A DNA stretch of 64,000 nucleotides, taken from contig CAWJAN010000001.1 in the NCBI GenBank assembly GCA_963840885.1, positions 9,669 to 73,668 on the forward strand. The letters are read 5' to 3'. The position numbers and the translations under genes are program-made. Below are positions 1 to 21,795 of this stretch, piece after piece. Under the pieces are notes generated by a model, which was not told the DNA's origin, did no database searches, and saw only the letters and a list, made by a program, of their open reading frames with translations. The stretch comes from an uncultured bacterium. Lineage in GTDB: Bacteria > Patescibacteriota > Minisyncoccia > Phycocordibacterales > GWA1-40-21. Position 1 is the first letter of the stretch; each line of letters opens with the position of its first letter.

Positions 1-939
1 TCTGGAAGCCGAAACGAGGGTCGCCAAGCAGCGTCGTGATGACTCTCGGCGAGCGATGCACGGCGCGGTGCAGGCAGTCGCACGCCAGCTTGGAATCGCG
101 AGCGTGCAGGGCGTCGTGGGCTCGATTCAGGAGGGCGCGGCTCACGCGAAGGTTGGCAGGCGCAGGCGCAGTCGAGGTGCGTCGGCTCGATCCTTGAGGT
201 CAACGGCGAAGAGAAGCGCTCGAGGAATCGACTTGTCTCGTCGAGGTCGGCCAGACCGGTCTTGAAGCGATGCGTCTCGCTGGCGGTATGCCAGCGGACC
301 CGCACGGTTGGCCGTGCCAGCCACGCCACTGCCATCACCGCGGACGCGCAGCCAGAAGTCCCAGTCAACGACATAGCGAAAACGCGTCGAAGCCGCCGGC
401 TTCGTTGAACGCCTCCAGCCGCAGCGTCACCGCCGAACAGCGGAGCGGGTTGCCGTCGGCCATCGGCGCGATGCCCGGCCGAGGACCACGGTCGATCGGA
501 CCTAGGCCCCCCTGCTCGACCACCGTCGCGGCGACCGGTCCCCCGCGCTCGTCGATCACCACGGACGCGCTGGCGACGAGTCCGATGCCGACATCGGCCG
601 CAACGCCGCCGCATGGGCCGCCAGGTGCCCGGGCAGCATCACGTCGTCCTGGTGAAGATCGCGACGATCGGCGTGCGAGCCAGGGCCGCGCAACGGTTCC
701 AGTTTCCCGCCAGGCCGAGACGCTCGGAATTGACCTCGATGCGAGCACGGTCGCCGGCCGCGCGCGAACCACTCCGAGCGTATCGTCGTCTGATCGGTCG
801 TCCGAGACGATCAGCTCGAATCGACGCCGTTCTTGCGAGAGGATGCTTCGCGAGCGCTTCGCGCGAGATGACACGCACCGTTGGTAGTCGGGATGGCGAC
901 GGTAAGCGGGGCCAGGCAGGGGCGGCCACGCGGGTCTCG

Positions 940-1258
940 ACCTCAGTTCGCGCAACGGGCCTGGCTCGCCGATCGCCCGCAGCGTTTCCCACGTGAAGAT
1001 CCCCGACGAATGGCCGTCGTTCCAGGCAAGCTGGACCGCGTAGGTTCCGATGTTTTCCATGCCGACCAGCTTCAGGTCGGGGCGGATCGATTCGGGTCGA
1101 GCATCCGCTCGCCGGTCCATTCGTTGCGGCACGTCGCACACGGGCATTCGCTGCGGAGCACGTGATAGGGAAAGCGATCGACACGCGACATCCGGCCAGG
1201 TCACTTCGAGGATCTGGTCGGCTTGAAGGGCGCGGATGTTGGTGGGAGGATCGGACAT
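940..1258 (-). CDS. DUF971-like protein (gamma-butyrobetaine hydroxylase N-terminal-like), apparently frameshifted
   Basis: ORF 365..1258 N-terminal part reads ADQILEVTWPD ... VQLAWNDGHSSGIFTWETLR, resembling the duplicated W-DGH motif of DUF971; the frame changes inside. Confidence 0.3.
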
Positions 1259-1458
1259 GGCGGATGAATCCTATTTCGTGTGTACTCCCGTCCGACCTCA
1301 AGGTAAATTCTCGAGATCGGCGAGATCCTTGAGCCTGCCGGACCACGCTTGTTAACCTTTAGATCCTCAGAGGGAGATGAGAGACACCGGGACGTCGTCG
1401 ATGACATCGACGACCCGATTTGCGTAGGCAACGGCAAAGTCCAATCCGGAGATCGTCG

Positions 1459-1764
1459 TCAGAATCTCAATGGTAAGCGGCCGTCTACCCATGCGCGTGA
1501 TTTGATCGGGCAGGGGAGAAATTGTTCGGGCGTTATGCCGAGACCACCGAAACCGAACTCCTCCAGCGTCGCTATAACCCGTTTTGCATTCTCCTGGCCA
1601 ATCGCGATCCAGATGTCCATGTCATCCGTGGTGCGCGGATACCCGTGATAAGAGACGGCGTAACCGCCGATGAGCAGGTACTCAACGTGATGGTCGCTTA
1701 ATAACCTCAAAAACTCTTTCAAGTGCACTGTAAGGGGATCATAGCCATAAGCCACCTGACGCAT
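1459..1764 (-). CDS. minimal nucleotidyltransferase-fold protein
   Basis: 101 aa ORF with the GG-x10-DxD motif (LLIGGYAVSYHGYPRTTDDMDI) typical of MNT-type nucleotidyltransferases; it sits in a locally lower-GC stretch. Confidence 0.5.
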   Translation of the reverse strand: MRQVAYGYDPLTVHLKEFLRLLSDHHVEYLLIGGYAVSYHGYPRTTDDMDIWIAIGQENAKRVIATLEEFGFGGLGITPEQFLPCPIKSRAWVDGRLPLRF

Positions 1765-2577
1765 GTTATTCGAGGGCTTCCAATAGCACGGAATCGGGGA
1801 GTCTGCATTGCCCCAGTATTGCTTCTATCGATTGCGTCAGCTTTCATGAAGAGACACAACGGCAAAGGCGGTTTTGTCCAGGCGAAGGGTGTCCATCGGC
1901 GTCAGCATTTTTCCGGTCGCATCGGCTGTTGTATTTCGCTCTCCGGTCATGTGATCAAACCCCCAGGAGGGCGGAATGCACCTTGACACGCCATCGGATC
2001 ATAACACAACCCGCCGATTACGATTAAACGCGAGATGTCGAACCCGACCGTAACTTCTACGTCCGCACCCCAAGCATCAACGCGGTCCGGCGGGCCCTCG
2101 ACCGGGCTCCAGGCGGAGCGAAGGTCGTGGGCCGCCATGACCGCGAGACCATTCTCTGCACGCACACCATGGACGGGCATAGCCTCGCCCGCCACTGGAA
2201 AGTGATCGTGAGCCGCCTCGCCCAAGCCGGGCTGGCCGTTGTTCCGCGTCCGGAGCTTGCGAGACCGAAGACCGGCGAGTCCCGCACGAAGTCCATGAAG
2301 CGCTTCATTTCTTCTCCGCCGAGAGCTTCTTCAGAAGCTCGATGGCGTGGTTCAGCTCTTTGGTGGCCCTGGTTGCCCCACCGAGCTCCTCCAGGGCTTT
2401 CCGCAGCTTCTTGATCTCAGCGTCCAAATCGTCCAGCCGCTTCGAGAGCGCAGCGGTTGGATCCTTGGACTGCTGGTCCTTGGGTTTGTCTGCCAGGCCA
2501 GTCAGAGGGGCCGCGTCCCGGGACCCAGAAATTGCGCCGGGCTCTACGCGAGCGTGAACACGATCCGCGGCATCTCG

Positions 2578-3400
2578 ATGGACGGCAAGGTGCCGATCTT
2601 CTACATGATCGGTCTGCTGAGCCGCGAGAAGGACAAGGACCCGAAGGACTCGCGGCACTCCATGGTCCGCTTCGCCGAGCCGCTGCTCGACATCTTCGGC
2701 GTGCCGCACGCGCGGCTGGAAGGGCCGAACGACGTGCACCTGATCCCCGAGTACTACCGGCTGAGCCGCGAGCGCAAGGGCCCGGCCGCGGTGCTCGTCG
2801 GCCTGGAGACCGCGTGCATGGCCGATGAAGCCGGAAGAGATCCTGAACCTGATCACGGCCGCGCGCGGCACCGCCATCTGCGTGCCGACCATGACCACCG
2901 GGCCCGCACTGGCGGACGATCGCCCCCGACGATCTCTCGGTCGGGCTGCGTCGGCTTCATGGGCGGCGCCTCGTCGATGGGTCTCGGCCTCGCGCTGGCG
3001 CGCCCGACCGCCGCGTCATCGTGTTCGACGGCGACGGCTCGCTCCTCATGCAGCTCGGCTCGCTCGCCACCGTCGCGGGCGCCGCGCCGCGCAACCTCGT
3101 GCACTTTCTCTTCAAGAACGGCGTGTACCACACCTCGGGCGCGCAGGGGATTCCGGGCGGCCTGACGGTGGACTTCGTCGCGATGGCGAAGGGGGCGGGC
3201 TACCGGAGCACGTGCACGATCACGAGCCTCGACGAGTTCAAGCAGCGCCTGCCCGGCCTCCTCTCCGACGAGGGCCCGATCATGGCGCAGCTCATCACCG
3301 GCCTCGCGGGGAGCACGCCGATGAACTCGCCGCCCGGGACGCCCTTCCCCCAGCAGGTGGCGAACGTGCGCGCCAAGGTGACCGGCGGGCGCCTATCCGT
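2578..3400 (+). CDS. TPP-dependent decarboxylase (sulfopyruvate/phosphonopyruvate decarboxylase-like), disrupted by frameshifts
   Basis: Three + frames carry consecutive pieces: [34 protein letters not shown], then [15 protein letters not shown], then [30 protein letters not shown]. The last piece contains the TPP-binding GDGS motif. Confidence 0.45.
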
Positions 3401-3852
3401 AGACGATGCCGAGCGTTTCCGCCACCATGGCGGGGCGCGTGTTGCCCTCGACCTCCATGGTCATCTCGCTGGTGATGCGGAAGCCGTTGTCCTCCACCGG
3501 CTCGACCTTGACCAGCTTCTGGCGCAGCCGCACGCGCGCGCCCGCGGGCACCGGCGCGGTGAAGCGCACGCGGTTCGAGCCGTAGTTCAGGCCGCGGCGC
3601 CGCTTCTCGATCTTCATCAAGGTCGGGGCGAGCTGCGGGCAGCAGCGAGAGTGTCAGGTAGCCGTGGGCGATGGTCTTGCCGCCCGGCATCTCCTTCTTG
3701 GCCCGCTCGACGTCCACGTGGATCCACTGGTGGTCGCCGGTGGCGTCCGCGAACTTGTCGATCATCTCCTGGGTCACCGTGAGCCACTCGGACGGACCCA
3801 GCTCCTTGCCCACGTGCTGGAGCAAATCCTGCGGCTTCTCGACCTTGAGCAT
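3393..3852 (-). CDS. MaoC-like (R)-specific enoyl-CoA hydratase/dehydratase, hot-dog fold, one frameshift
   Basis: [34 protein letters not shown] in ORF 3295..3888; C-terminus continues in ORF 3393..3620 ([22 protein letters not shown]). Confidence 0.55.
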
Positions 3853-3923
3853 AGCGTTCCTCCCTCGGGTATGATCTGCGGGCGCCATTATCGCCCAGTC
3901 CCAGTCCCGGAGGAAAGCACGCG

Positions 3924-5040
3924 ATGAGTTACGACGCGCCCTTCGCCGGCCTCACGGTGGTGGACCTGAGCCAGGGGATCGCGGGGCCCTACTCGGGCAT
4001 GCTGCTCGCCCAGTACGGCGCCGACGTGATCAAGGTGGAGCCGCCGGAAGGTGACTGGGCGCGCGCGCTCGGCAAGCGCTACGGTGACATGACCGCGTTC
4101 TCCATCGCGGCCAACCTCGGCAAGCGCTCGATCGTGCTCGACCTCAAGACCGAGGAGGACCGGCAGATCCTCCGCCGGCTCGTGGCCACCGCGGACGTGT
4201 TCCTCGAGTCCTTCCGGCCGGGCGTGGCGGCGCGCCTCGGCGTTCGGCTACCCGGACGTCGAGGCGATCAACCCGCGCATCATCTATCTTTCGGTCTCCG
4301 GCTTCGGCCAGACCGGCCCTGACGCGGAGCGCCCGGCGGTGGACACCGTGTTCCAGGCTTTCACCGGCCTCATGTCGGTGAACCGCGGCCTCGACGGCAT
4401 CCCGCACCGCGTGCCGGTGATCGTGATGGACATGGCCACCGCGCTCAGCAACTTCCAGGCGATGGCGGTCGCGCTCTACGCCCGCCGCGACGAGCCGCGC
4501 GGCCGCTACATCGAGTCGAGCCTGCTGCGCGGCGGGGCGACGATCCAGGCGGTGTCGATGATCCAGCACCACCTGGAGGGCGGGAAGCCGCAGCCGGGCC
4601 TCACCCCGTCGGGCACCTTCAAGGCGAGCGACGGCTGGATCAACCTGACGATCCTGCGCGACGCGGAGCTTCCCGGTGCTCTGCGACGCGCTCGAGATCC
4701 CCGCGGCCAAGGGCGATCCGCGCTTCGCCACCAACGACTCGCGCTTCGCCAACGTGACCGCCCTCACACGCGCTGCTCGACCCCGCGTTCGCCCGGCGCA
4801 CCACCGCGGATCTCTCGGCGCGGCTTCGCGGCGCCGCCTCATGCACCAGCGGGTGAACACCTACCTCGAGTTCCTCGACGATCCGCACGTGAAGGCGATC
4901 GGCGCGGTGACCTGGATCGAGCAGCCGGGGCTCGGGCGGGTGCCGGTGCCCGCAGGTGCCGGGCCTGCCGCCGCTCCGCAGCGGGACGCCGCGGGCGGTG
5001 GCGCCGTCGCTCGACCAGCATCGCAAGGAGATCCTGGCCG
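3924..5040 (+). CDS. family III CoA-transferase (CaiB/BaiF-like), disrupted by frameshifts
   Basis: N-terminus [35 protein letters not shown] (3924..4322). Continuation [27 protein letters not shown] (4339..). C-terminus [31 protein letters not shown] (4676..5056). Confidence 0.6.
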
Positions 5041-5052
5041 AGCTGGGGCCGC

Positions 5053-5838
5053 ATGATCTCATACGATGCCGGCGCGGCCTCCTACGATCAGCTGTCAGGA
5101 CGATGGTCCCGGCTGTACATCCCGACTTTGCTCGCTCAGGCCGGCATCGCGGTTGGTCACCGGGTTCTCGACGTCGCGACGGGCACCGGGGAAGCGGCAA
5201 TTCTCGCTGCATCTCGCGTCGGCGCAGGCGGAAGGGTTGGGATTGACGTGTCGCGGCCGATGCTCGGCGTGGCCGCGGCGAAAATGGCCAAGCGGCCGAT
5301 AGCGTTACTACAGATGGATGCGCAGGCGCTAGCTTTCAAAGACGAGAGTTTCGACGCGGTGGTGTGCCAGCTCGGCCTCATGTTTCTGCCCGACGCGGTC
5401 AGAGCGCTCCGAGAGTGGACGCGCGTTCTTCGCTCGCGCGGCCATCTCGCGGTCTGCGTCTGGGCCACCCCCGACCGCGTACCTCTTTTCGGAATCCTGA
5501 TGGACGAACTCAGTCGCCACCTCCCTGACCAGCGTGACGTGCTTTATCAACCCTCCGCATTGGCCGATCCGGACATTCTCGAACGATTACTCGCGGGCGC
5601 GGGCCTGAAAGCCGTTCGTGTGACGCGGGAGACTCGCGTCCATCGGTTCACGTCGTTTGACGAATACTGGCAGCCGTTTGAGGCGGGAGGCGGACGCCAC
5701 GGGCAGCTGTACCTGAGACTTCCGGTTCCGGTGCGGCGGACAGTTCGAGATACCGTGCGCAAGCGCATGGAACCGTTCTTCGTGGACGGATGTTTAGAGA
5801 TGGAAGCGGATGTCTTCTTCGCTGCCGGCGAGCGATAG
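5053..5838 (+). CDS. class I SAM-dependent methyltransferase
   Basis: Intact frame with VLDVATGTGEAAILAASRVGAGGRVGIDVSRPML and FDAVVCQLGLMFLPD motifs; locally lower GC. Confidence 0.6.
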   Translation: MISYDAGAASYDQLSGRWSRLYIPTLLAQAGIAVGHRVLDVATGTGEAAILAASRVGAGGRVGIDVSRPMLGVAAAKMAKRPIALLQMDAQALAFKDESFDAVVCQLGLMFLPDAVRALREWTRVLRSRGHLAVCVWATPDRVPLFGILMDELSRHLPDQRDVLYQPSALADPDILERLLAGAGLKAVRVTRETRVHRFTSFDEYWQPFEAGGGRHGQLYLRLPVPVRRTVRDTVRKRMEPFFVDGCLEMEADVFFAAGER

Positions 5839-7180
5839 CGTCGGCTTCACCGCCCGCGGGTGCAGGACGTCGATCGCCCATCCCACGTCGAAGGGCTCTC
5901 CGGGCCGGGCAAGGCCCGCCGTCCGGGCGTTCAGGTGAAGGCCCTGCGCGTCGTGACACGTTCGCAGCGCCGCGACGGGATCAGCAGGCACCGCGGCGGG
6001 TGGCGGCACCTCGGGGAGCGGCCGACCATCAGGCCGGCGGAACTGGAGGGCCCCGTCCGGTCCCGGCGCGACCTGGTAGCCCTCCTCGTGGACTGCTCGA
6101 TGATGCCGTCGACAGAGCAGGAGGAGATTCGCCAATACGGTCGGTCCGCCCTGCGCCCAGTGGCGCACGTGATGCCCCTCGCCGACCCGCACATGGCAGC
6201 CCGGGAAGCGACAGGTCCGGTCCCGGTGCTGCAGCGCCCGCCGCAGCGCGGGCGGAATCGTCCGGGTGCGGGCTCCGATCTCGACCACGCGTCCGTCCTC
6301 GTCGTGTCGCATCACCACGCGGCTTGCGTCGCACGCCAGCCGCCGGGACGTTTCCGCGGAAACGTGGCTCCCGTCTTCCAGCACCGACTGGCCGGGTTGC
6401 GCCGGGTCCGCCAGCACCGCGGCGTCCACGTGGACCACCACCTGGTACCGCTCGCCGGGAGCGCCGGGATCGAGCTCGTGATGCAGCGCGGTCTCGGCCA
6501 GCAGCGCCAGCGCGTCCGCGTGCTGCTGCGCCCGGGTCGGCGGCGTCAGGGCGGGGTCAGCGGCCGGCCGGCTGCCCCCGGCGACGCGCGTCCGCTGGTA
6601 GAGGGTTTCGCGGGCGGCGTCGAGCGCTCGGAGCAGCAGGGCGCCCACGTCCGCCGTCAGCCGTCCGCGCAAGACGACCGTGCCGTCCTCGTCCTGGTAC
6701 ACATGCAGGGCGCGCGCCGCGTGCTGCCGCGAGGCCTCCTGGCTTCGGCCTGGCGGTCCACTCGCCGCCAGCCGCGCACGATGCGCTCCACGTGGCAGGC
6801 CGTGCCCGCGCGCCCGACCGCCAGCAGGCGTGCCTCCGTCTCCGGCGTCGCCACGCGGGTCAAGGCGCGCACCTTGGCGTAGGACAGCTCGCCACGAGCG
6901 AGGGCCTCGGCCAGGCGGGGCAGTGTCCCGAGGGCGCGCGCCACCCTGACTCGCTCGCGGGCGGCGCCCAGGTCGAGGCCCACGCGCCAGCTCAGCCAGT
7001 GGGCGCAGGAGCGGAAGCCGTGTTCCAGCCGCCGCGGGCGTCGAAGTCGCGGATCAGCGCGAGCAGGCGCGCGGTGGCGGCATCGAGGTGCGCGGACAGC
7101 TCGGCGATCTCGTCGCCGAGTCGCTCGAGCGCCGCCACGCGAGCCGGCGCGGGAACCAGGGTGGGCAATTGCATGGCCAT
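5794..7180 (-). CDS. DUF222-family HNH endonuclease, disrupted by frameshifts
   Basis: C-terminal HNH core RTCRFPGCHVRVGEGHHVRHWAQGGPTVLANLLLLCRRHHRAVHEEGY (5794..6702). DUF222 N-terminal pieces RGELSYAKVRALTRVATPETEARLL and LIRDFDARGGW lie in two further minus frames. Confidence 0.55.
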
Positions 7181-7458
7181 GACGAGTCCTCCTTCGACTG
7201 GAGCGACTCTGCACCCTGGCCTTCGACGCCTCTGGCGTTCACCAAGGCCGCGCGATCGCGTGGCGAGAAGTGATTTTTCATCCGGCATCGCCCGACCGTG
7301 AAGCAGGGTGTCCCTGCGGGACGCTGAGCGAACGTTTTGCCAAAGGTTGCCGCCGCGCGACGAGCCGCTCAGTGAACGCTGTCAAGTTGAAACGCGCGCG
7401 ACCGTCCACTATCGTCTCGGCGGAGGGATCTGGGATAGGATCCAAGCAGGAGACCACC

Positions 7459-9072
7459 ATGACAATGCAGATCTCGACCCGGCTCGTGCTGCTGGGCCTC
7501 GTACTCGCCACGCTCGCGCCGGCCACCGGCCGGGCGCAGGCTCCGGAGCGGTTCGGGACCGTCGACTTCCCGAACTCCTGCGCGCCGGCGGTGCAGGAGG
7601 CGTTGCAGCGCTCGGTCGCCATGCTGCACTCCTTCAACTACGGCCCGGGCGAGCGAGCCTTCCGGGACGTGCTCGCCCAGGACCCGTCGTGCGCGATCGC
7701 GACCTGGGGCTTCGCGTCCATCCTGATGTCCAACCCGCTCGCGGGCATCGGCGCCGCGCCAAGGACGCGCCGCGCGCGCAGGCCGCCATCGACGAGGGGC
7801 GCGCAGATCGGGCGCGAAGACCGCAGCGCGAGCGCGACTACATCGAGGCGGTCGCGGCGTACTACGAGGACTGCGCCGACCGCCCGCGAGCGCGAGCGCC
7901 AGCGCGCCGCGCGCCGAGGCCTACGAAAAGCTCGCCGCGCGCTACCCGAAGGACGACGAGGCGCAGATCTTCTACGCGCTGTATCTCGCCGGCACGCAGT
8001 CGCAGTCCGACCAGACCTACGCGGCCTACCTCAAGGCGGCGGCCATCCTCGAGAAGCAGTTCGCGAAGCATCCCGATCATCCCGGGCGTGGCGCACTACC
8101 TGATCCACAGCTACGACGCGCCGCCGATCGCGGCGAAGGGCGTGCCGGCCGCGCGCCGCTACGCGGGCATCGCGCCCGCCGCGCCGCACGCGCTGCACAT
8201 GCCGTCGCACATCTTCACGCGCGTGGGGCGCTGGAAGGAGTCGGCCGAGACCAACGCGCGTCCGCCGGCCGCGCGGAACCCTGGCCGCGAGCGGCGAGTC
8301 CGGGCGACGAGGGCCTGCACGCGATGGACTACATGATCTACGCCTACCTGCAGCTCGCGCGCGACGGCGAGGCGCGCGGCGCTGGTGGAAGCGGTGCAGG
8401 CGACCGGAAGCTGAACGTGGCCGCTTCGCCGGGCCCTACGCGCTGGCCGCCATGCCGGCGCGCTACGCGGTCGAGCGCGGCGAGTGGGCGGAGGCGGCGA
8501 CGCTGAGCCGACCCCCGGACCGCTGATCCGTTCGCCGAGGCCGATCCACGGTGGTTCGCGCGCGGGCTCGGCGCGGCGCGCAGCGGCGACGCGGCGCGCG
8601 CCCAGAAGGACCTGGAGCCGGATCGAGGCCTGCGCGACGCGCTACCGCGGCGAAGAACGAGTACTGGGCGCACCGAGGTCGAGGTGAGCGCCTCGCGGTC
8701 GCGGCCTGGATCGCGCACGCGCGAAGGCCGGACGACGGAGGCGCTCGCGCTGATGCGGGCCGCCGCGGACGCGGAGGACCGCAACGAGAAGCACATCGTG
8801 ACGCCCGGGCGCATCCTGCCCGCGCGCGAGCTGCTCGGGCGACATGCTGATCGAGCTGAGGCGCCCGGCGGAGGCCCTGAAGGAGTTCGAGGCCTCGCAG
8901 CGGCGCGAGCCCGACCGCTTCCGGGGCCCTACGGCGCCGCGCGCGCCGCGGTGCAGAGCGGCGACGGGCGAAGGCCCGGCACTACTACGTCAAGCTGGTC
9001 GACATGGCGGGCGCGGGCGACGCGCGGCCCGATCTCACCCAGGCCCGCGCGTTCCTGGCCGCGAATCCCTGA
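7459..9072 (+). CDS. secreted TPR-like repeat protein, disrupted by frameshifts
   Basis: Signal peptide MTMQISTRLVLLGLVLATLAPATGRAQA; helical repeat segments recur across three + frames up to a TGA near 9070. Confidence 0.35.
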
Positions 9073-9960
9073 GGCGCCGTCAGCGGAAGAGGTCGATCAG
9101 CTCCTGGAGCGCGACCATCTGGTTGCCCTTGGTGGAGGACGGCACCATGATCAGCGTCTTCACGCCCGCCGCGTACCAGGCCTCGACGCCGTCGCGGACC
9201 TCCGACGGCGCTGCCGTAGAGCGTGACCTGGGAGAGCCAGCGGTCGGACATGAGCGAGGGGATCTTGTCGTCCTGGCCCGCCGCGATGGCCTTGCGGATC
9301 GCCTGCATCTCGTCCTCGAAGCCGGCCTCGATCCAGTAGTTCTGGTAGTTCGGCAGCTTGACGTAGCCGGTCAGGGTGCGGCGGTTCACCGCGGCGGCGG
9401 CGGCGCGGTCGTCGTCGATGCAGGTCGGCACCATGTTGCCGATGAAGAAGTCGGACCCGCTGCGCGCGGCGGCGGGCAGGGCCTCGAGCGACGCGGGCAT
9501 GTGCGAGCGCGCCGCGTTGGCCCACACCGCGCCCTGGGCGATCTCGCCGGCCAGCGCGACCATCTTCTGGCGCAGCGTCGCCAGCACGATCGGCGGCAGC
9601 TCGCCCGCCAGCTTGGCGCCGGCCTGCGAGCTCGCTGCACGAAGCGGCGCATGTCCTCGAGCGGCTTGCCCGGCCTGATCGCCGAGCCGGTCGTGGGTGG
9701 GCCCGTGGCTGACGCCGACGCCGAAGCGGAAGCGGCCGCCCGACGAGCTCGTGGATCAGCGCCGCGGTCTGCGCGTAGTCGTAGGGGTGGCGCGTGTAGA
9801 TGTTGGCGATGCTGGTGCCGAACGGGATCTCCGTGGTGGCGAGCGCGAGCGCCTCGCAGAGGCCGAGCCCGTCGCCGAAGCTCGGGCAGTAGATGCCGGC
9901 GAAGCCCTCCTCCTCGAGGCGCTGGGCCATCTCGACGGTGGCCTTGCGCCGGCCGGGCAC
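9073..9960 (-). CDS. LLM-class flavin-dependent oxidoreductase (luciferase-like), disrupted by frameshifts
   Basis: N-terminal MAQRLEEEGFAGIYCPSFGDGLGLCEALALATTEIPFGTSIANIYTRHP. Middle YVKLPNYQNYWIEAGFEDE. C-terminus ends VALQELIDLFR at a stop at 9073. Confidence 0.5.
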
Positions 9961-10622: not shown

Positions 10623-10641
10623 TCTCCTCCTGGGCCTCGGT

Positions 10642-12545: not shown

Positions 12546-12546
12546 C

Positions 12547-12632
12547 CGGGGTCAGGTCTTACATTCCGACATTTCCGGGAGGCGCTGAGTCGCGGGGCGC
12601 CCAGAAAATGTCGGAATGTAAGACCTGACCCC
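12547..12632. repeat. large near-perfect inverted repeat (about 29 bp arms, about 28 bp loop), AT-richer than its surroundings
   Basis: Left arm GGGGTCAGGTCTTACATTCCGACATTTCC and its reverse complement on the right arm differ by one T. Confidence 0.6.
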
Positions 12633-12740
12633 AGGCTGTCGGCGGGCATTCTGGTAATCCGCGAGAGCCGTTGACAAGGCGCGGCCCGCGTCGCAGAGTC
12701 TTGGCACCCGACAACCCCTCTCACTCTCGGAGGTGCAGGC

Positions 12741-14328
12741 ATGGCGCGTCGAGCATTCTCGCTGGGACTCCTTACCGCGGTCGCGATGGTCGCGCTGCTC
12801 ACGTTCGGAGCGCCGGCCGCCGACGCCCAGAAGAAGGGCGGCGTGCTCCGGGTCGGCAACCTCGGCGAGCCGCCCGACGCTCGACGCGCACTGGACCACC
12901 GCCAACATCACCGAGATCCTCGACCAACCACATCTACGAGGGGCTCTACACCCTCGACCGCGACAACAGGCCGATCCCGATGCTGGCCGAGGGCCTGCCC
13001 CCGGTCAGCCGGGACGGCCTCACGCTACACCATCAAGCTCCGGCAGGGCGTGACGTTCCACAACGGCAAGGAGATGACCTCCGAGGACGTGGTCGCCTCG
13101 CTGACGCGCTGGGGCAAGCAGTCGATCTACGGCAAGGCGCTCTTCGCCCAGGTCGCCGACCTCCGCGGGCGTGGACAAGTACACGGTCGAGCTGAAGCTC
13201 AAGGAGCCGTCGCCCATCGTGCTGATGGCGCTGGCGGTGCCCAACAACTTCGGCGCGATCTATCCCAAGGAGATCGCCGAGAAGTTCCCGCCCCAGGTGA
13301 AGATCACCGAGTACGTCGGGCACCGGTCCGCTTCCGGCTCGCGGAGTGGAAGCCCGACCAGTACATCCGGATGGTGCGCTTCGACGACTACAAGCCGCGC
13401 AGCGAGAAGCCCGAACGGCTACGGCGGCGGCAAGACCGCGTGGCTACGTCGACGAGATCCGCTGGATCCCGACGCCCGAGGTGGCCACCCGGGTGGCCGC
13501 AGCTGGAGACCGGGCGAGCTCGACTTCGCCGACGACCTGACGCTCGACTCCTACGACCGCCTGCGGCCGAGCCCGGTCGCGCGGCCCCTGGTCGCCAAGC
13601 CGTACTTCTGGCCCATGGCCGTCTTCAACAAGAAGGAAGGCCTGATGACGAACCAGAAGCTGCGCCAGGCCTGGCAGGCGGCCCTCGACATCGAGCCGAT
13701 CATGAAGAGCGTGGCCGGCGGCAAGCCGGAGTTCTACCGCCTCGACAGCAGCCTCGATCCCCGGCGAGATCGCCGGAGTGGCACACCAAGATCGCCGGGC
13801 CTGCCCGTGGAACGAGCACAACGCGGCCAAGGCCAAGCGCTGCTGCAGGAGGCCGGGCTACAAGGGCGAGCCGATCCGCTTCATGACCACCCAGGAGTAC
13901 AAGTGGATGTACGACTTCGCGCTGGTCACCAAGCAGCAGCTGGAGGACGCGGGCTTCGTCGATCGACCTCCAGGTGCTGGACTGGGCCACGCTGGTGAAG
14001 CGGCGCAACAACCCGAAGGAGTACGACGTCTTCACCACCGGCATCGGGCCCTTCTACGACCCGACGCCAGCCCTCTTCCTGAGCTGCTCCTGGCCGGGCT
14101 GGACGTGCGACGAGGACATCCAGAAGCTGCAGACCGGAGCTGGCCCAGGAGACCGATCCCAAGAAGCGGCAGGCGCTGTGGGAGCAGCAGACCAGGCTGT
14201 TCTACGAGAAGGTCCCGGTGATCCGGTACGGCGACCTCTTCGGCCTCCGCGCGGTCCGCAAGACCGTGAAGGGCTTCAACGAGCGGACGGAGCGGCCGCG
14301 CTTCTACAACGTGTGGCTGGAGAAATAA
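12741..14328 (+). CDS. ABC transporter substrate-binding protein, family 5 (peptide/nickel, DppA/OppA-like), disrupted by frameshifts
   Basis: Signal peptide MARRAFSLGLLTAVAMVALLTFGAPAADAQ. SBP_bac_5 segments recur in all three + frames up to a TAA near 14326. Confidence 0.6.
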
Positions 14329-14358
14329 CTCGACGCGCGGGCGGCCTGACCCGCCCGC

Positions 14359-15307
14359 ATGCTTTCGTATCTCGTCCGGCGCCTCCTCGCCGTCATCCCG
14401 GTGATGGCGGTGGTGGTGACGGTCGTGTTCCTGCTCATCCACCTGATCCCGGGCGATCCGGTGAGCGTGATGCTGGGGCCCGACGCGACCCCGAGCCAGA
14501 TCGACGCGACGCGCAAGGCGATCGGGCTCGACCGGCCGCTGCACGAGCAGCTCGCTGGGCTTCTACGCCCGGGTGCTGCGCGGCGACCTCGGCCAGTCCT
14601 ACTTCCTGGACCGGCCGGTGACCACCGCGATCCTGGGAGCGGGCCGAGCCCACTCTGGTGCTGATGGCGTGCGCCCTGCTCGTGGCGGTGGCGATCGGCG
14701 TGCCGTCCGGGGTGGTGGCGGCGGCCCACCGCGGCTCGATCTGGGATCGCGTGCTCATGATCGGCTCGCTGCTCGGCGTCTGCGTGCCCGGCTTCTGGCT
14801 GAGCCTCAACTTCATCTACCTCTTCGCGGTGCGTCTCGGGCTGGCTGCCCGCCGCGGGCTACGCCTCGCTCTTCACCGAGCCGGTGCGCCGCGCTGCGCT
14901 ACATGGTGCTGCCCGCGGTCTCGCTCGGCTTCAACCAGTCGGCGCTGATCGCGCGCATCAGCCGCTCCTGCATGCTGGAGGCCCTCCAGCAGGACTACGT
15001 GCGCACCGCGCGGGCCAAGGGGCTGCCCCAGCGCGCGGTCACCTACGTGCACGCCTTCCGCAACGCGCTGGTGCCGGTGGTGACCGTGATCGGGGTGACC
15101 ACCGCGGTGCTCATCGGCGGCGCGGTGGTCACCGAGATCGTCTTCAACATCCCCGGGCCTCGGGCGCCTCGTGATCTCGGCCATCCTGCGCCGCGACTAC
15201 CCGGTGGTGCAGGGGGTGGTGCTGGTGACGGCCGCGACCTACGTGCTGATCAACCTGGTGGTGGACCTGCTGTACGCCTTCATCGATCCGCGCATCCGCT
15301 ATGACTG
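14359..15307 (+). CDS. ABC transporter permease (DppB/OppB-like), frameshifted
   Basis: MLSYLVRRLLAVIPVMAVVVTVVFLLIHLIPGDPV N-terminus; the EAA-loop region and the C-terminal FIDPRIRYD lie in other frames. Confidence 0.6.
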
Positions 15308-16152
15308 AGCGCAGCCGAGCGGCAGCGCTGGATCGCGCCGGCTGGCCGGAACGGGGGCGTGGTGACCGGGGCCGCCCTCCTGCTCGTGCTGGTGGCGGCC
15401 GCGCTGTTCGCCGACGTGCTCTCCACCTACAACCCCACCCGGCTCGGTCCCGGCCAACCGGCTCAAGCCGCCGAGCGCGCAGCACTACCTCGGCACCGAC
15501 GAGTTCGGCCGCGACGTCTACAGCCTGGTGCTGCACGGCAGCCGGGTGTCGCTGCTGGTCGGGCTCACCACCATGCTGCTGCACCTCGGCGGGCGGCGTC
15601 GTCATCGGGCTCACCGCCGGCTACTCGCGGCGGCTCGACGTGCCGGTGATGCGGTGCATGGACGGCCTGATGGCCTTCCCGGCCATCCTGCTCGCGATCG
15701 CGCTGATGGCCGCGCGCGGGCCCGGGGTCTGGAACGTGATCCTGGCGCTCTCGGTCGTCTACATGCCGCGCACCGCGATGCTCATCCGCAGCACGGTGCT
15801 GAGCCTGCGCGAGCTCGACTACATCCAGGCCGCGCGCGCGCTGGGCCGGCGCGACGGCGCGATCGCGCTGCGCCACATCCTGCCGAACTGCGTGGGCCCG
15901 CTGCTCGTGCAGGGCAGCTTCGTGTTCGCCTACGCGATCCTGGCCGAGGCGATCCTGGGCTTCCTCGGCGTCGGCGTGCCGCCCTACGTGCCGTCGTGGG
16001 GCAACGTGATCGCGAGCGGCAAGAACGTCATCCGCGAGGCGTTCTGGGTGAGCCTCTTCCCCGGCTTGGCCTTGACGATCGCCGGGCTCAGCCTCAATCT
16101 GCTCGGCGACGGTCTGCGGGACGTGCTGGACCCGCGGCTCCGAGTGCGCTAG
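15301..16152 (+). CDS. ABC transporter permease (DppC/OppC-like)
   Basis: 283 aa ORF. The conserved DppC N-terminal segment lies in a neighbouring frame (15359..15649), implying an N-terminal frameshift. Confidence 0.6.
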   Translation: MTERSRAAALDRAGWPERGRGDRGRPPARAGGGRAVRRRALHLQPHPARSRPTGSSRRARSTTSAPTSSAATSTAWCCTAAGCRCWSGSPPCCCTSAGGVVIGLTAGYSRRLDVPVMRCMDGLMAFPAILLAIALMAARGPGVWNVILALSVVYMPRTAMLIRSTVLSLRELDYIQAARALGRRDGAIALRHILPNCVGPLLVQGSFVFAYAILAEAILGFLGVGVPPYVPSWGNVIASGKNVIREAFWVSLFPGLALTIAGLSLNLLGDGLRDVLDPRLRVR

Positions 16153-16658
16153 AAGAGGAGGGCCCGGGCGATTCCTTCACCTCGTGACCGAGCGCGGCGA
16201 GACGCCGCGCCAGGAGGCCGGATGATGAGAGCGATGGACTCGAGACAGCCGTCCCTGCTGGAGGGGCCCGCGCCCCGGCGCGCGCCACGGTCCCGGCCGA
16301 GCCGGGGGCTGCTCGCGCGGCTCGCCCCGCGGCGCGGTGGAGATCGTCCGCCACGCCAACGGCCCGGTGGAGGTGAAGGTGTCCGGGCTGATCGACAGCG
16401 CGGAGCGACGGATCCGCCAGTGGCAGGGCGTGGCGGCCATCCTCTTCATCCTCATGGTGGTGGGCGCCGCGCTCGCGGTGGTGGTGGTGGCGCTGCGCTG
16501 GGACTTCGAGCGGGGCCGCGCGGTGCGGGTGCTCCAGGCCGACCTCGAGATCGCCCGGGCGCGCGAGCGCTGCTGGGAAGCGCTGGCTCGCCCCCGGCGG
16601 GCGCGACGCGGGCGCGCTGCATCACGCCCCGCGCGTACGCGCGACGGGACCACCAGCC

Positions 16659-16893
16659 GATGGAGGCGTGCACGCCGACGACCGGGGTGGAGACGCTGCG
16701 CTGGCCGGCAGGAGAGCAAGATGCTCTTCCACCCGAGCCCGCGACCGCCCAACGCGGGCTGGTGCGCTACGAGCCGGGCTCGCATCATCCCTTCCACAAG
16801 CACGACTTCGCCCAGGTCTGGTACATCCTCGAGGGCGAGTTCCAGATCGGCGACCGCTGCACCCGGGGCGCTGCTCTCCCCCGACCCGCCTGA
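16659..16893 (+). CDS. small cupin-domain protein
   Basis: YEPGSHHPFHKHDFAQVWYILEGEFQIGD matches the cupin G(X)5HXH..E motif. Confidence 0.4.
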
Positions 16894-16981
16894 GCGTCGG
16901 CGCGTCCACGACGGGCGGCCCGCTGCCTTCAACATGAGGCCCGGGCCGCCACGTCGATCGCCGGCCCCCTCACCCTGCCCG

Positions 16982-16998
16982 TCTCCCCGTGGGGGAGA
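16982..16998. terminator. GC-rich palindrome between convergent genes (candidate bidirectional terminator)
   Basis: TCTCCCC-GTG-GGGGAGA between the cupin ORF end and the molybdopterin oxidoreductase stop at 17007. Confidence 0.35.
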
Positions 16999-17006
16999 GG
17001 GAGAGA

Positions 17007-19052
17007 TTAGAGGGCGGCGACCTCGACGCGGCAGTCGTTGTAGCAGGCGCCCCCGCAGATGTCCGCGTGGTGCCCCGGAGCCAGCGCCGAGACGGTCTGC
17101 CCGTTGTCGCTGGTCCGCATCCACGCGCCCTTCAGGCTGCACACCACGCCGGGCCGGATCGCGTCGGTGACCTGGAGCGGCAGGTGCACCTCGCCCAGCT
17201 CGTTCCACACCCGCACCACGCATGCCGTCGCGCAGGCCGCGGGCCTTGCGCGTCGTCCGGATGCATCTCGAGCGGCGGCGTCACGTCGCCCGGCTTGAGC
17301 CCGCCGAACGTGGAGGTGATGCGCTCGTCCGACGCGGGCGAGATGAGGACGAGCGGGAACGGCGTCTCGTAGGCGCGGAAGGTCGGCAGGCGCGCTGCCG
17401 TACTTCTGCTCGAGGTAGCCGGACGCCAGCTCGATCTTGCCGGACGGCGTCTTCGGGAAGACGTTGCTTGAAGAGGATGGCGGGCTCGCCGTTCGACCGT
17501 CATCGCGGTGGCGCGGTCGGTGGGCAGCCGGCTCGGCGCGCACGCCGCCCAGGCGCGGGTCCGCGCCGTCCACCGCGTCGTCGATGAGCTGCGGCGTCGC
17601 TGGCGGTGAAGGCGGGGTCGGTGAAGCCGAAGCGCGCGGCGAGCCGCCGGAAGATCTCGGTGTTGGGCAGCGACTCGCCCTGCGGCGGGATCACCGGCTC
17701 GGCGCGCTGCAGCCAGTGCTGGCCGTAGGCCGCGTAGATGTCGTCGTACTCGAAGTGGCTGCGAGGCGGGCAGCACCACGTCGGCGTAGGCGAGGCTGTC
17801 GGTCATCACCACGTCCGAGCCCACCGTGAAGAGATCCTCGCGCGCGAGCCCGCGCCGCATCCGGTTCTGGTCCGGGTGCACGACCAGCGGGTTGTGGTTG
17901 TAGATGAAGAGCGCCTTGATCGGCGGGGACAGGGTCGGATCGAGGAGGTGCTGGCCCATGTCCACGATGTTGAGCGTGCGGGTGCCCGGCGGCAGCAGGT
18001 CCGGCCGCTGCAGCTCGGCCGGCGTCTTGGGGAACACGAAGCCCGCGCCGTTGACGAGCCCGCCGCCCGGCACCCCGAACTTCCCGGCCAGCGCGGGCAG
18101 GGCGAAGATCGCGCGGATGCCGCTGCCGCCGTTCTGGTTGCGCTCGAGCCCGTTGCCCACGCTGATCGCGGCGGGCGAGAGCGTGTGGTACCACTCGGCG
18201 AGCTGCCGGATGTCGGCCTCGGGCACCCCGCAGATGCGCGAGGCGTCCGCCACCGAGTAGCGCGCGCGCGCCGGCCATGAACTCCTCGAAGCCCTCCACG
18301 TGGCGCTCGATGAAGGCGCGGTCGAGCGCGCCGCGCCGCTCGAGCTCCGCCGCGACGGCCCACGCCAGCACCACGTCGGTGCCGGGCTGGAGCGCGAGGT
18401 GCAGATCCGCCTGCTCGCGCGATCTTGATGCGCTTGGGGTCGACGACCACCACCTTGGCCCCGTCCCGCCGCGCCGCGTTGATGCAGCGGCGTGAGGTGC
18501 AGGTTCGACCAGGTGACGTTGTTGCCCCAGGCGATGATGAGCTTGCGAGTGCCGCACCTGCTCGGGCGCGATGCCCGGGCGCGGTCCCGAAGGTGCCGAG
18601 CCACGCCTGGGTGCGGATGCCGCCGCAGAGCGGCGAGCGATCGAGCAGCGAGGCGCCCAGCTTGTGGAAGAAGCGCAGGTCCATCGAGGCGTAGGCGAGC
18701 ATGCCGTGCGGCCCCGCGTAGTTGAGCGGCAGCGACGGCCTGCGGGCCGTGCGCGGCGATCACCGCGGTCACGCGGTCGTGGATGATGTCGAGCGCCTCG
18801 TCCCAGCGACGCGCGCGCGAACCGGCCCTCGCCCTTGGCCCCGACCCGCCGGAGCGGGGTGCGGAGCCGCCCGGGCCCGTGCACCCAGTCCGGGTACGAG
18901 CCGGCCACCTTGGTGCAGATGACGCCGGCGGTGTAGGGGTTGGCCCGGGAGCCGCGGATCTTCACGATCTTCGCGTCCTCCACGGTGACGGTCAGGCTGC
19001 AGGTGTCGGGGCAGTCCAGCGGACAGACGCTCGCGTGCTCGGTGGTCGCCAT
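17007..19052 (-). CDS. molybdopterin (bis-MGD) oxidoreductase, formate dehydrogenase/nitrate reductase superfamily, disrupted by frameshifts
   Basis: N-terminal 4Fe-4S motif CPLDCPDTCSL and GVICTKVAG. Molybdopterin domains lie in two further minus frames. C-terminus ends at the stop at 17007. Confidence 0.6.
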
Positions 19053-19171
19053 GGCCCCGTATCGTAAGGCAATCGGAGGCGTCTCCGCCACCCGGGTAAA
19101 CAGAGCGCGGCCCGCGCTCGTCTATTGCGGCAGAGGGGTGGCCGCCATGACCCCTCGTGAGGAGACCCAAC

Positions 19172-19560
19172 ATGAAAAAGCTGATCGCGCTGGTTCTGGC
19201 CGTCGCGGTCTTTGCTCCCACGCTGGCCTTCGCGGGCGCGTCGACGGACGCGGCCCTCGGGCTCGGCGCCTTCGCGGTGTTCAATCAGATCCTGGGCGGG
19301 GTCGGCATCTTCCACCGCGGCCCGGTGGTGGCGCCCGCGCCCGTGGTCGTCGCTCGGCCCGCGCCGGTCTACGTGCCCGCTCCGGTGGTGGCGCCACCCC
19401 GCGGGTGATCGCGCCGCGGGTGGTCGCTCGGCCCTACCCGGTCTACGTGCCCGCGCCGCGTCCCGTGGTGGTCCACGAGCGGCCGGTGTTCTGCCCGCCC
19501 GGCCACGCCCGGAAGGGCTGGTGCTATCCCGCGCCGGTGCGCCCGGCCTGGCGCTACTGA
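19172..19560 (+). CDS. small secreted Pro/Val-rich tandem-repeat protein (one frameshift)
   Basis: Signal peptide MKKLIALVLAVAVFAPTLAFA, then repeats VVARPAPVYVPAP; C-terminus PGHARKGWCYPAPVRPAWRY in a second frame. Confidence 0.45.
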
Positions 19561-19615
19561 TCGCGTCCGTCGCTCACGTCCGGCGCTGACCGGCCCGCTG
19601 ATCGGATGACTCCCG

Positions 19616-19646
19616 CCCTCTCCCCCCGAGACCCGGGGGGAGAGGG
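19616..19646 (+). terminator. GC-rich stem-loop (12 bp stem, 7 nt loop), candidate terminator
   Basis: CCCTCTCCCCCC-GAGACCC-GGGGGGAGAGGG immediately after the repeat-protein gene and before chrA. Confidence 0.45.
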
Positions 19647-19663
19647 TGCTACACTCCAGGGGC

Positions 19664-20830
19664 CATGTCGCTCGCGCGCTCGCTCGAGCTCGACGAGTGA
19701 GACGCGTCTCCCTCCTCCGGCTGATCGCGGTCTTCGCCTGGACCGGCCTCTCGAGCCTGGGCGGCGGCCGCAGCGCCTACTTCCACGACGCGCTGGTGCG
19801 GCGGCGCGGCTGGATCCGCCACGACGAGTTCGTCCAGGACTTCACGCTGAGCCAGGTGCTGCCCGGGCCCGAACTTCAGCAACCTCGCGGTCGTCCTCGG
19901 CTACCGGCTCGCCGGCTTCGCGGGCGGCGTGTGGGGGCTGCTCGCGATCGTGCTGCCGGGCGCGGTCATCCTCCTGGGCGCGAGCGCGCTCTACGCGCAG
20001 GGCGCCTTCGGGAGCGGCGCCAGTCTCCTGCATGCGCGGGCTGAGCGCGGCGGTGGTGGGGCTCGTGCTCGTGACGTCGCTCCGCATCATGCGCGGCTCG
20101 CTGCGGGGCGGACGTGCGGTCGTGATCGCGCTGATCACCTTCGTGGCGGTCGGCCCGCTGCGCCTGCCCACCGTCGGCGTGGTGCTGCTGATGACCGCGC
20201 TGAGCCTCGGGCTGCACTGGTCGGCGCCCGCGGCGCGGCCGGTCCTCGCCGGCTCCCCCGTCCACCCCGCCACCGGAGGGCGCGTGATGGCGGACCTCGC
20301 GCTGCTCACCTGGACGTTTCTCTGGCTGAGCTTCCTCTGCGTGGGCGGCGGTCTCGGGGTCATCCCGGAGATGGAGCGGCAGGCGGTGACCATCCACCAC
20401 TGGCTCACCGCCCGCGAGTTCGTCGACGGCTACACGCTGTCGCAGCTCACCCCGGGCCCCGGCATGCTGGTCGCGGTCTTCGTGGGCCACCGGGCCCACG
20501 GCCTGCTCGGCGCGGCGCTCGCGGGGCTCGCGATGTTCGTGCCCACCTCCGTCCTGGCCATCGTGATCTCGCACCACTGGCAGCAGTGGCGCGCCCGGCC
20601 GTGGGCGCGTCGCCGCCGAGCGGGCGCTCCTGCCGGTCGGGGTCGGGCTGATGGCGGGCGGGGTCTACACGCTCGCGCGCACCGCGATCCACGACGGCGC
20701 GACCGTCGCCCTCGCGGCGGCCACCGCGCTCGTGGTGGCCACGGATCGCGTGCCGCCGGTGGTGGCGGTGCTGGCCGCGGGCACGGCTCGGCTGGCTCCT
20801 CTCGCGATAGGCGCGCCGGCGACGCTTGAC
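19664..20830 (+). CDS. chrA: chromate ion transporter ChrA (two CHR halves), disrupted by frameshifts
   Basis: First half WTGLSSLGGGRSAYFHDALVRRRGWIRHDEFVQDFTLSQVLPGP; second half FLCVGGGLGVIPEMERQAVTIHHWLTAREFVDGYTLSQLTPGPGMLV; several frame changes. Confidence 0.55.
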
Positions 20831-20901
20831 ACGCGGCTTCGTCCCGACATAAGGTCGCACCGGCTCGTCGGCGGCTCCCGCGCCCCTCGACCCGAGGAGG
20901 A

Positions 20902-21795
20902 ATGCCGTGCTCGGCTCGCGCTCCCCCGTCTCCCACGGTGTCGTCGTCGCCGCTCGCGCTCCTCGTCGTCCTCGCGGTCTCCTCCGCGGTCTCGGTGACC
21001 GCGCAGCGGCTGGCCGACGGCCAGGCGCCGAAGTTCACGGTGGATCCGTTCTGGCCGAAGCCGCTGCCCAACCGCTGGCTGCTCGGCCAGGTGGCGGGCG
21101 TGGCGGTCGACCCGCTCGACCACGTGTGGATCGTGCAGCGGCCGCGCACCCTGACCGACGACGAGAAGGGCGCCACGCTCAACCCGCCGCGCAACGAGTG
21201 CTGCGTGCCCGCGCCGCCGGTGATGGAGTTCGACAGCGAGGGCAACCTGCTCCAGGCCTGGGGCGGGCCCGGGCCGGGCTACGACTGGCCGGCCAACGAG
21301 CACGGCATCTTCGTGGACCCGTCCGGCAACGTGTGGCTGGCCGGCAACGGGGAGAAGGACGACCAGATCCTCAAGTTCAGCCGCGACGGCCGGTTCCTGA
21401 TGCAGATCGGCAAGCCGGGCTCGAGCGGCGGCGACGCCGACACCGCGCAACCTCAATCGCCCCGCCGACGTGCGGGTGGACGCGGCGGCCAACGAGCTGT
21501 ACGTGGCGGACGGCTACGCCAACCACCGGGTCATCGTGTTCGACGCGACCACCGGCGCCTACAAGCGCCACTGGGGCGCCAACGGCCGGCCCCCGGGCGA
21601 CGCGAGCGTGAAGCAGTTCCGGAACCCGGTGCACTGCGTGCGCATCGCGACCGACGGGCTCGTCTACGTCTGCGACCGGATGAACAACCGGATCCAGGTC
21701 TTCAAGAAGGACGGCACCTTCGTGAGCGAGTTCGCCCTGGCGATCTCGACGACCGGCAACGGATCGGTGTGGGACCTCGACTTCTCCCGCGACCC
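20902..21795 (+). CDS. secreted NHL-repeat beta-propeller protein, 3' truncated at the composition junction
   Basis: Signal peptide plus repeated VVFDATTG / LVYVCDRMNNRIQVF motifs. The frame runs into low-GC sequence at about 21,795 with no natural stop. Confidence 0.5.

Follow-up and report, generated by a model that had tools for sequence, protein, structure and literature searches.

A frame-disrupted Methylomirabilota segment on a deposited metagenome contig as a probable assembly and consensus artefact

Gene content of the high-GC segment and its boundary

The window (the whole stretch of 64,000 nucleotides that was analysed) opens with a segment of lower GC (56–68%; positions 1–2534), where recognisable features are limited to a DUF971/GBBH-like_N domain (about 976–1234, minus strand) and a nucleotidyltransferase-like ORF of 101 aa (1459–1764, minus strand). 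Ten ORFs of this segment yielded nothing against Pfam, no blastn match was obtained between it and the reference contig L001 (ENA ERZ25039463 contig_47165) or 80 Methylomirabilota loci, and a scan of JGI metagenomes with the ORF at 1459–1764 returned only relatives of at most 81% identity over the length of that ORF. The segment ends at a breakpoint that truncates a gene for a TPP-dependent decarboxylase.

From there to position 21795, the window consists of Methylomirabilota/Rokubacteria DNA; the reference sequences include L001 and two short-read MAGs (L047 and L002). The initial annotation had reported that nearly all genes of the high-GC part are frameshifted, and indeed 16 of the 18 recognisable genes in 2535–21795 can be followed only by passing through two or three frames. 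The decarboxylase (TPP_enzyme_C; 2535–3390, plus strand) lacks the N-terminal 86 of its orthologue's 370 aa and carries seven frameshifting indels. It is followed by a MaoC dehydratase (3399–3852, minus; two frameshifts), a family III CoA-transferase (3924–5063, plus; five frameshifts, with mismatches distributed 13/5/49 over the codon positions) and a methyltransferase of 262 aa (5053–5838, plus), which is intact, 92% identical to its L001 orthologue and marked by a 1+2 nt in-frame deletion. The DUF222 gene (5797–7180, minus), split in L001 too, keeps an intact C-terminal part of 302 aa and has four frameshifts N-terminally. Damage is heaviest in the next gene (7459–9069, plus), which has 41 frameshifting indels and whose orthologue encodes 529 aa that match nothing in Pfam. 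Downstream lie a luciferase-like monooxygenase (LLM; 9083–9999, minus) spread over three frames by seven frameshifts, a nitroreductase (10007–10618, minus), also with seven frameshifts, an intact Abhydrolase_2 esterase (10642–11310, minus) whose protein is 100% identical to that of L001, and an Acyltransferase_3 gene (11397–12585, plus) with single-base insertions at 11433 and 12173, the rest being about 99.9% identical to L001. Two long ORFs of this region, already suspected of being artefacts, proved to be so: that at 5790–7301 (plus) is antisense to the DUF222 gene, and that at 9386–11365 (minus) runs in a different frame from the esterase.

A palindromic repeat element of about 90 bp, followed by a breakpoint at about 12637–12653, occupies positions 12541–12653, and a 6.2-kb cassette of L001, L047 and L002 is absent from the window at this breakpoint (about 12640). 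Beyond it come an SBP_bac_5 solute-binding protein (SBP; 12741–14325, plus) with 25 frameshifting indels, a DppB-like permease (14359–15305, plus) led by five single-base insertions through frames 1, 2, 3, 1, 2 and 3, and a DppC-like permease (OppC_N and BPD_transp_1; 15250–16149, plus). Three genes had been taken as intact; the methyltransferase and the esterase are, whereas the third, a permease read at 15301–16152, is not, since this ORF holds only orthologue residues 111–299 in frame and OppC_N lies in other frames. The orthologue of a 180-aa protein (16153–16591, plus) contains one insertion, at 16321, and the molybdopterin oxidoreductase (Fe4S4, Molybdopterin and Molydop_binding; 17010–19076, minus) contains 15 single-base insertions and no deletion. 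The orthologue of a 164-aa protein (19078–19557, plus) occupies two frames, the chromate transporter (ChrA; 19602–20782, plus) has about four frameshifts, and the NHL-repeat protein (20892–21795, plus) has two insertions.

At 21795/21796, this 70% GC Methylomirabilota DNA meets low-GC DNA in a blunt junction, where GC drops from 0.66–0.75 to 0.43. The taxonomic affiliation switches at the same point, from Methylomirabilota on the left to proteins closest to unrelated MAGs on the right. Two convergent genes are cut mid-ORF by the join. The NHL gene breaks off at about residue 321 of 398, and a class I/II aminotransferase belonging to the low-GC genome (21796–22596, minus) at about residue 267 of a total near 433; from the aminotransferase, the called ORF of 310 aa at 21664–22596 reads through into the high-GC DNA. 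Alignments of four references (L047, L002, L050 and L005) all stop exactly at 21795, and the rest of the NHL gene is present beyond the breakpoint in L047, L002 and L050. Neither adapter nor mobile-element gene, integrase or transposase was found at the junction, and the search there for repeats or a target duplication returned chance-level matches only. The join, which sits inside a housekeeping aminotransferase and is the one end of the block that falls within the window, does not display the integration hallmarks of a horizontally acquired island. On the low-GC side, the tested genes are uninterrupted and the tested ORFs align with Pfam profiles along their full length; three proteins are exact matches to Logan contigs of run ERR12036782, an independent assembly, with about 20 neighbouring genes equal in length. 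The blunt join and the breakpoints at 2535 and about 12640 had been missed initially.

Extent and spectrum of the frame disruption

Coding segments were called by GC3-based Viterbi segmentation in 2535–21795 and in six related reference loci. The block resolved into 57 segments of median 205 bp, and in 42 cases (2.18 per kb) neighbouring segments on one strand differ in frame; in the reference loci, the segment medians are 629–793 bp and such switches occur at 0.36–0.75 per kb. Ungapped tblastn searches, with intact L047 orthologues as queries, indicated that the disrupted pieces belong, in collinear order, to single genes; gapped tblastn is misleading in this high-GC DNA, where alignments cross wrong frames without stop codons. 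The molybdopterin oxidoreductase falls into 17 such pieces, cycling through frames −2, −3 and −1, the SBP into 12, DppB into six, DppC into four, ChrA into four or five and the NHL gene into three, and the fragments, once stitched, reproduce the domain order of the Pfam architectures. The orthologues are uninterrupted on L001, L047 and L002. Full-length calls were obtained in L001 for the SBP (521 aa), DppB, nitroreductase, LLM, CoA-transferase, MaoC and TPP genes, and the molybdopterin oxidoreductase is uninterrupted in L047 (677 aa), to which the fragments of the window are 93–100% identical; a homologue search with one fragment of this gene returned short fragments only and no usable reference.

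Against each of four references, the window shows one gap opening per 107–122 bp, compared with one per 274–4238 bp between pairs of references at equal divergence. The high-GC segment holds about one spurious small indel per 110–190 bp, overwhelmingly single G/C insertions, and nearly every gene is broken by them. Relative to L001, 106 of the 110 in-gene indels are not multiples of three and insertions outnumber deletions (84 versus 30). Of 97 single-base insertions, 87 add a G or C. Indel spacing is over-dispersed (CV 1.49). A link to homopolymers, which the initial annotation had invoked, is not supported. The inserted base lengthens a same-base run in only 24 of the 87 G/C insertions (43 expected, p=3.5e-5), and in a comparison with L001, 44 of the 64 single-base insertions lie where the run length is 1 (34.7 expected). 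The actual bias is towards G or C inserted between G's and ahead of GGGC, an inserted C being followed by GGGC in 11 cases versus 1.5 expected (p=3.5e-7).

The substitutions number 155, 135 and 364 at the first, second and third codon positions, respectively, a third-position excess; 310 of 664 are exchanges between C and G, and no AT drift is visible (183 W>S versus 143 S>W). Once indels are removed, the proteins are 80–100% identical to those of L001, with one premature stop in approximately 4,100 codons. In some genes (SBP, TPP and the 529-aa gene), mismatches are more even over the codon positions, divergence being mixed there with possible substitution errors. Both the purifying selection recorded in the substitutions and the orthologues intact elsewhere indicate, at the level of sequence, that the genes beneath the indels come from a natural strain and are functional.

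Origin of the frameshifts and of the join

The frameshifts are real in the sequence, and their cause is almost certainly consensus error, neither gene decay nor new biology. Of the two components of the initial proposal of homopolymer or indel sequencing error, it is the indel error that stands, as the best explanation by far. Very probably, the window reproduces unaltered one part of a 247,900-bp contig deposited from a metagenome, and this contig is itself chimeric, with a Methylomirabilota segment bearing spurious indels misjoined to a low-GC genome; our verdict is an assembly and consensus artefact, not a real biological feature. Indeed, a protein retrieved by homologue search (P0131) is identical to the junction-spanning ORF along its entire 310 aa, and exact copies of five frameshift-specific ORFs are recorded for that same contig, so that the defects belong to the deposit and were not added later.

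In this scenario, a Methylomirabilota (Rokubacteria) population would have contributed at least 21.8 kb, wrongly attached to the well-covered genome of a low-GC bacterium unrelated to it, a chimeric read or a ligation chimera possibly lying behind the join. Very low or mixed-strain read support for the high-GC segment during long-read consensus would then have led to the indel errors. Contig naming and related MAGs of such a project suggest that the source assembly is of the nanopore-only metaFlye-plus-Medaka type. A nanopore-only soil MAG workflow consisting of metaFlye and one Medaka round has been described, with error signs reported in low-coverage MAGs (PMC12313526). The blunt join to error-free low-GC DNA, together with the breakpoints at 2535 and about 12640, points away from an assembly left unpolished throughout and towards a chimeric segment with low support.

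The fragmentation of protein predictions by indel errors in long-read-only assemblies is a problem reportedly raised by Watson and Warr in 2019. The block resembles such cases in that 1-bp indels account for almost all breaks in its genes while orthologues are intact elsewhere, that indel correction restores full-length proteins and that spurious ORFs reach protein databases. It departs from them in having G/C insertions beside G's instead of homopolymer-length errors, and in affecting only one segment of a contig whose remainder is clean. Nanopore consensus errors are usually deletion- and homopolymer-biased, and insertion-dominated errors outside homopolymers are unexpected there, a point against the main reading. 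As for the join, the switch from 70% to 43% GC at single-base resolution, the truncation of two unrelated genes and the extension of donor-lineage references beyond the breakpoint are shared with inter-genome chimeric contigs, although here no shared repeat explains a graph error.

A possible, but rather doubtful, variant replaces low depth by the collapse of mixed strains. At least two Methylomirabilota strains 5–10% apart would have been merged, with indels arising where they differ and mosaic identity reflecting strain switching; this would still be an artefact and differs from the main reading in the error mechanism only. Consistent with it, identity to the references is patchy along the block, and indel density follows divergence from L001, from two indels and two mismatches in 10800–12600 to approximately 25 indels and 146 mismatches in 12900–14400; moreover, a closely related strain with stretches of 100% identity (L001) exists in public data. 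However, the intervals 3000–3300, 5400–5700 and 9300–9600 display 22–28 mismatches each and zero indels relative to L001, and the one-directional +1 bias towards G/C is no obvious product of strain mixing.

Very unlikely, in our view, is a real and very recent inter-phylum integration of Methylomirabilota DNA into the low-GC chromosome, the frameshifts resulting from rapid pseudogenisation or from context-specific basecalling errors. The junction does exist in the deposited contig and, a long-read assembler having made the join, at least one spanning read may be presumed. Nevertheless, both genes are cut mid-ORF with neither integrase, transposase, repeat nor target duplication, and the error rate would differ more than 100-fold between the halves of a supposed single molecule. 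Two frameshifts fall where identity to a free-living relative is 99.9%, and L001 and L050, two 70% GC Methylomirabilota contigs named in the same style as the source contig, read through normally. The lesions themselves point the same way, as more than 100 frameshifts stand against a single nonsense codon, with an insertion bias, substitutions concentrated at third positions and no AT drift. On these grounds natural pseudogene decay was also rejected, in line with the initial opinion that gene-by-gene decay was the less likely cause. Pseudogene-rich genomes and decaying islands (Mycobacterium leprae, recent symbionts) likewise contain many consecutive frameshifted genes, but the block differs from them in its near-absence of nonsense codons, its insertion bias, its purifying selection without compositional drift and its lesions even where it is 99.9% identical to an intact relative. 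Also very unlikely is a physically real junction (very recent integration into, or in vivo ligation onto, the low-GC chromosome) combined with G/C insertions ahead of GGGC-type contexts that would be systematic basecalling errors owing to a DNA modification specific to the segment.

Deliberate degradation, that is, random indels put into a natural sequence, had been raised initially and would fit a very high frameshift frequency limited to one block, but it is scarcely credible: the junction ORF and the five frameshift-specific ORFs already stand as exact entries on one public contig, which effectively rules out both synthetic degradation and a concatenation of separate contigs, and the insertions, 90% G/C and dependent on the GGGC context, are non-random. 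Programmed recoding, in which ribosomal frameshifting or transcriptional slippage would restore the frames, has nothing more than the frame shifts themselves in its favour and can practically be set aside, in view of 2–41 shifts per gene at non-conserved sites versus the one conserved slippery site per gene that would be expected, orthologues unshifted in four references and no slippery motif common to the sites.

Consequences for the deposited record

Any MAG that includes the public 247.9-kb contig would, like the contig itself, carry foreign DNA full of errors, at least 21.8 kb of it. Read uncritically, such DNA would suggest massive pseudogenisation and a transfer of genes between phyla. 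Protein collections already contain spurious ORFs, among them the 659-aa and 503-aa out-of-frame and antisense ORFs, called and deposited as proteins despite being artefacts, and the 310-aa aminotransferase read-through. The value of the finding is practical, in terms of database hygiene, and not biological; the insertion-biased, non-homopolymer error signature linked to GGGC may aid the polishing and screening of long-read metagenome assemblies.

Reading frames of the high-GC block

GC content ranges from 66 to 75% across most of positions 1-21795 and then from 28 to 46% to the end of the window. A Viterbi model that uses the GC content of each codon position resolved the high-GC block into short coding stretches; the frame changes within a strand at intervals of 100-600 bp, and the translations of the stretches are stop-free and protein-like. 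Across 2535-21795 the model delimits 57 coding segments with a median length of 205 bp, and adjacent segments on one strand switch frame 2.18 times per kb. Six related reference loci, analysed in the same way as a control, have median lengths of 629-793 bp and 0.36-0.75 such switches per kb. Once stitched, the fragments fit the expected Pfam architectures with domain order kept (Fe4S4, Molybdopterin, Molydop_binding; OppC_N, BPD_transp_1; two Chromate_transp halves; NHL repeats). The frame-splitting of high-GC genes described in the initial annotation is therefore correct, and lies far above background.

Ungapped tblastn with intact orthologues from L047 (a reference locus in a MEGAHIT MAG) as queries recovered every window gene tested as collinear pieces in cycling frames: approximately 17 pieces for the Mo-oxidoreductase (mostly 93-100% identical; frames -2, -3, -1), 12 for SBP, six for DppB (frames 1, 2, 3, 1, 2, 3), four for DppC, four to five for ChrA and three for NHL. 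Among 18 recognisable genes of 2535-21795, only the esterase (10642-11310) and the methyltransferase (5053-5838) are undamaged; the permease ORF 15301-16152, listed with them as intact, is not, because the DppC gene to which it belongs falls into collinear pieces in cycling frames.

Intact relatives and the nature of the lesions

The esterase, 10642-11310(-), has an exact protein match on ENA ERZ25039463 contig_47165 (304 kb; hereafter L001), where SBP_bac_5 (521 aa), DppB, the nitroreductase, LLM, CoA-transferase, MaoC and the TPP enzyme (370 aa) are called at full length. Identity to L001 is 93.9% over window 2535-12653 and 91.4% over 12637-15065. Scanning the stitched Mo-oxidoreductase against species-representative genomes returned 80 loci, almost all from Candidatus Methylomirabilota/Rokubacteria MAGs, with L047 the top match (95.3% over 16959-21795), followed by L002 and L050. 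Five contigs (L002, L004, L005, L007 and L009) share 80-93% DNA identity with the Methylomirabilota locus, yet a MAG catalogue assigns them to unrelated taxa (Verrucomicrobiia, Dormiibacterota, the archaeon Nitrosotalea, Acidoferrum and Limnocylindria), which suggests mis-binning in their MAGs.

Two further observations concern fragmentation elsewhere. In L001, a contig that is otherwise clean, the DUF222 gene (window 5797-7180; L001 14095-15479) is likewise interrupted and appears as a pair of overlapping ORFs of 173 and 302 aa; either a true pseudogene or an error common to both sequences could account for this. Of the database homologues of the Mo-oxidoreductase (approx. 680 aa), many are fragments of 100-290 aa encoded by long ENA contigs of 75 kb to 1.5 Mb, a hint that the genes of these high-GC soil bacteria are commonly broken up by similar frameshifts when metagenomes are assembled from long reads.

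Against L001, the window carries 114 indels (84 insertions and 30 deletions; 86 of 1 bp), and 106 of the 110 inside genes are frameshifting. Against L047, nearly all lesions in coding regions are single-base insertions (15 insertions and no deletions in the Mo-oxidoreductase), deletions being clustered in divergent or intergenic stretches. As a control for natural divergence, reference-versus-reference pairs at 4.5-8.9% mismatch show one gap opening per 274-4238 bp; the window, set against four references in turn, has one per 107-122 bp. The inserted base is G or C in 87 of 97 single-base insertions. The homopolymer association initially suspected is not supported, since runs are avoided: 44 of 64 single-base insertions relative to L001 lie in runs of length 1 (34.7 expected), and across the 87 G/C insertions the inserted base lengthens a same-base run in only 24 cases (43 expected; p=3.5e-5). 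Insertions are rather enriched between G's, with 11 cases of an inserted C followed by GGGC (1.5 expected; p=3.5e-7). Such an insertion-biased, non-homopolymer signature is not what would be expected of nanopore consensus. Spacing is over-dispersed (CV 1.49), and local divergence from L001 is tracked by indel density; the 1.8 kb around the esterase are approximately 99.9% identical to L001, yet the acyltransferase gene there is frameshifted by two insertions.

The substitutions look natural and selected: mismatches to L001 at codon positions 1/2/3 number 155/135/364, and once the indels are taken out, the products of the 13 genes are 80-100% identical to their L001 counterparts, one premature stop remaining in all. 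C<->G changes make up 310 of 664 mismatches, as synonymous change in GC3-saturated genes would give, and no drift toward AT was found (W>S 183 versus S>W 143). Codon-position profiles are flatter in the heavily damaged SBP, TPP and 529-aa genes, where part of the mismatches may be errors too.

Junction and further breakpoints

At 21795/21796 the sequence passes from ...GACTTCTCCCGCGACCC to ATATTTATCG... The L047, L002 and L050 alignments reach 21795, and those loci go on with the remaining NHL gene (DLDFSRDP/AQSYLYVADGENN...), in place of which the window enters the antisense of an aminotransferase. The latter covers Pfam positions 16-231 of 361 and, its homologues being 433-435 aa long, is thus cut at about residue 267; both genes break off within their reading frames. 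The flanks of the join showed neither genes of mobile elements nor repeats beyond chance-level matches.

At 2535, the TPP gene is truncated by 86 codons at its 5' end. At approximately 12640, a 6.2-kb cassette (glyoxalase, SDR, NMT1-type ABC transporter, MR_MLE) present in L001, L047 and L002 is absent; the two flanking L001 alignments overlap by 17 bp, and a palindromic element of about 90 bp (12541-12653) directly adjoins the site, in one copy in the window versus two in L001 (3635-3729 and 8660-8772, in both orientations). Segment 1-2534 (GC 56-68%, below the rest of the block) matched none of the fetched Methylomirabilota loci. Recognised in it were a DUF971 domain and a short ORF resembling a nucleotidyltransferase, relatives of which occur across many metagenomes with identities of up to 81% along most of its length. 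The segment could be an insertion peculiar to the strain or a further chimeric fragment.

Beyond the join, the low-GC part has long, densely packed ORFs and two tRNAs. The S9 peptidase, MliC-domain protein and SLFN-like helicase match Logan contigs of run ERR12036782 exactly, approximately 20 surrounding genes have equal lengths there, and other low-GC ORFs align with Pfam profiles over the full length; this part is free of the damage seen in the high-GC block. Separately, a 27-38% GC island (31000-41000) adjoining tRNA-Gln (40850-40921) looks like a defence island, with an SLFN-type helicase (32258-34120; weak PDC-S41/Nhi/AbiO matches), a strong match to a type II methyl-directed restriction enzyme (40320-40823; E=2.5e-58), genes of the MazG-like and bPH_2 kinds and a SEC-C protein. 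Two peptide deformylase genes, 29186-29722(-) and 47814-48371(+), lie within 20 kb.

Origin of the defects and the public record

One molecule at one sequencing depth should have one consensus quality; the indel rate differs more than 100-fold between the two halves of the contig. Together with the blunt join cutting two genes, the additional breakpoints in the damaged half, the marks of selection on its genes and the intact relatives, this makes a chimeric contig the best explanation. A Methylomirabilota part with very low or mixed-strain read support would have been joined to a low-GC genome, and uncorrected consensus insertions would consequently remain in it. The contig_N-type names and closely related MAGs from the Microflora Danica long-read project fit a nanopore-only workflow (metaFlye and one round of Medaka; PMC12313526), that project being a candidate source of the window.

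That a transferred island has decayed naturally is a very unlikely reading. The initial interpretation is supported in part: its preference for indel sequencing error over gene decay is upheld, and the chimeric join had been missed. Deliberate degradation, also proposed then, is excluded by what is already deposited: a single 247,900-bp contig, present in both NCBI and ENA, encodes eight low-GC proteins. Its predicted protein P0131 equals ORF 21664-22596(-) over 310/310 aa, high-GC read-through included, and it has exact entries for five ORFs from the block that are artefactual or specific to the frameshifts (19606-20829, 12741-13886, 11487-12674, 9386-11365 and 5790-7301). The window was therefore unaltered after deposition. 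Programmed frameshifting is likewise excluded.

ORFs 9386-11365(-) and 5790-7301(+), already called artefacts in the initial annotation, are indeed out-of-frame or antisense products of the damaged block; they stand on record as P0256 and P0257, beside the read-through P0131, so that spurious sequences from the block are now in protein collections. What breaks the high-GC genes is almost certainly an artefact. Its biological interest is low, and it is of some use to database hygiene and to the understanding of consensus error modes.
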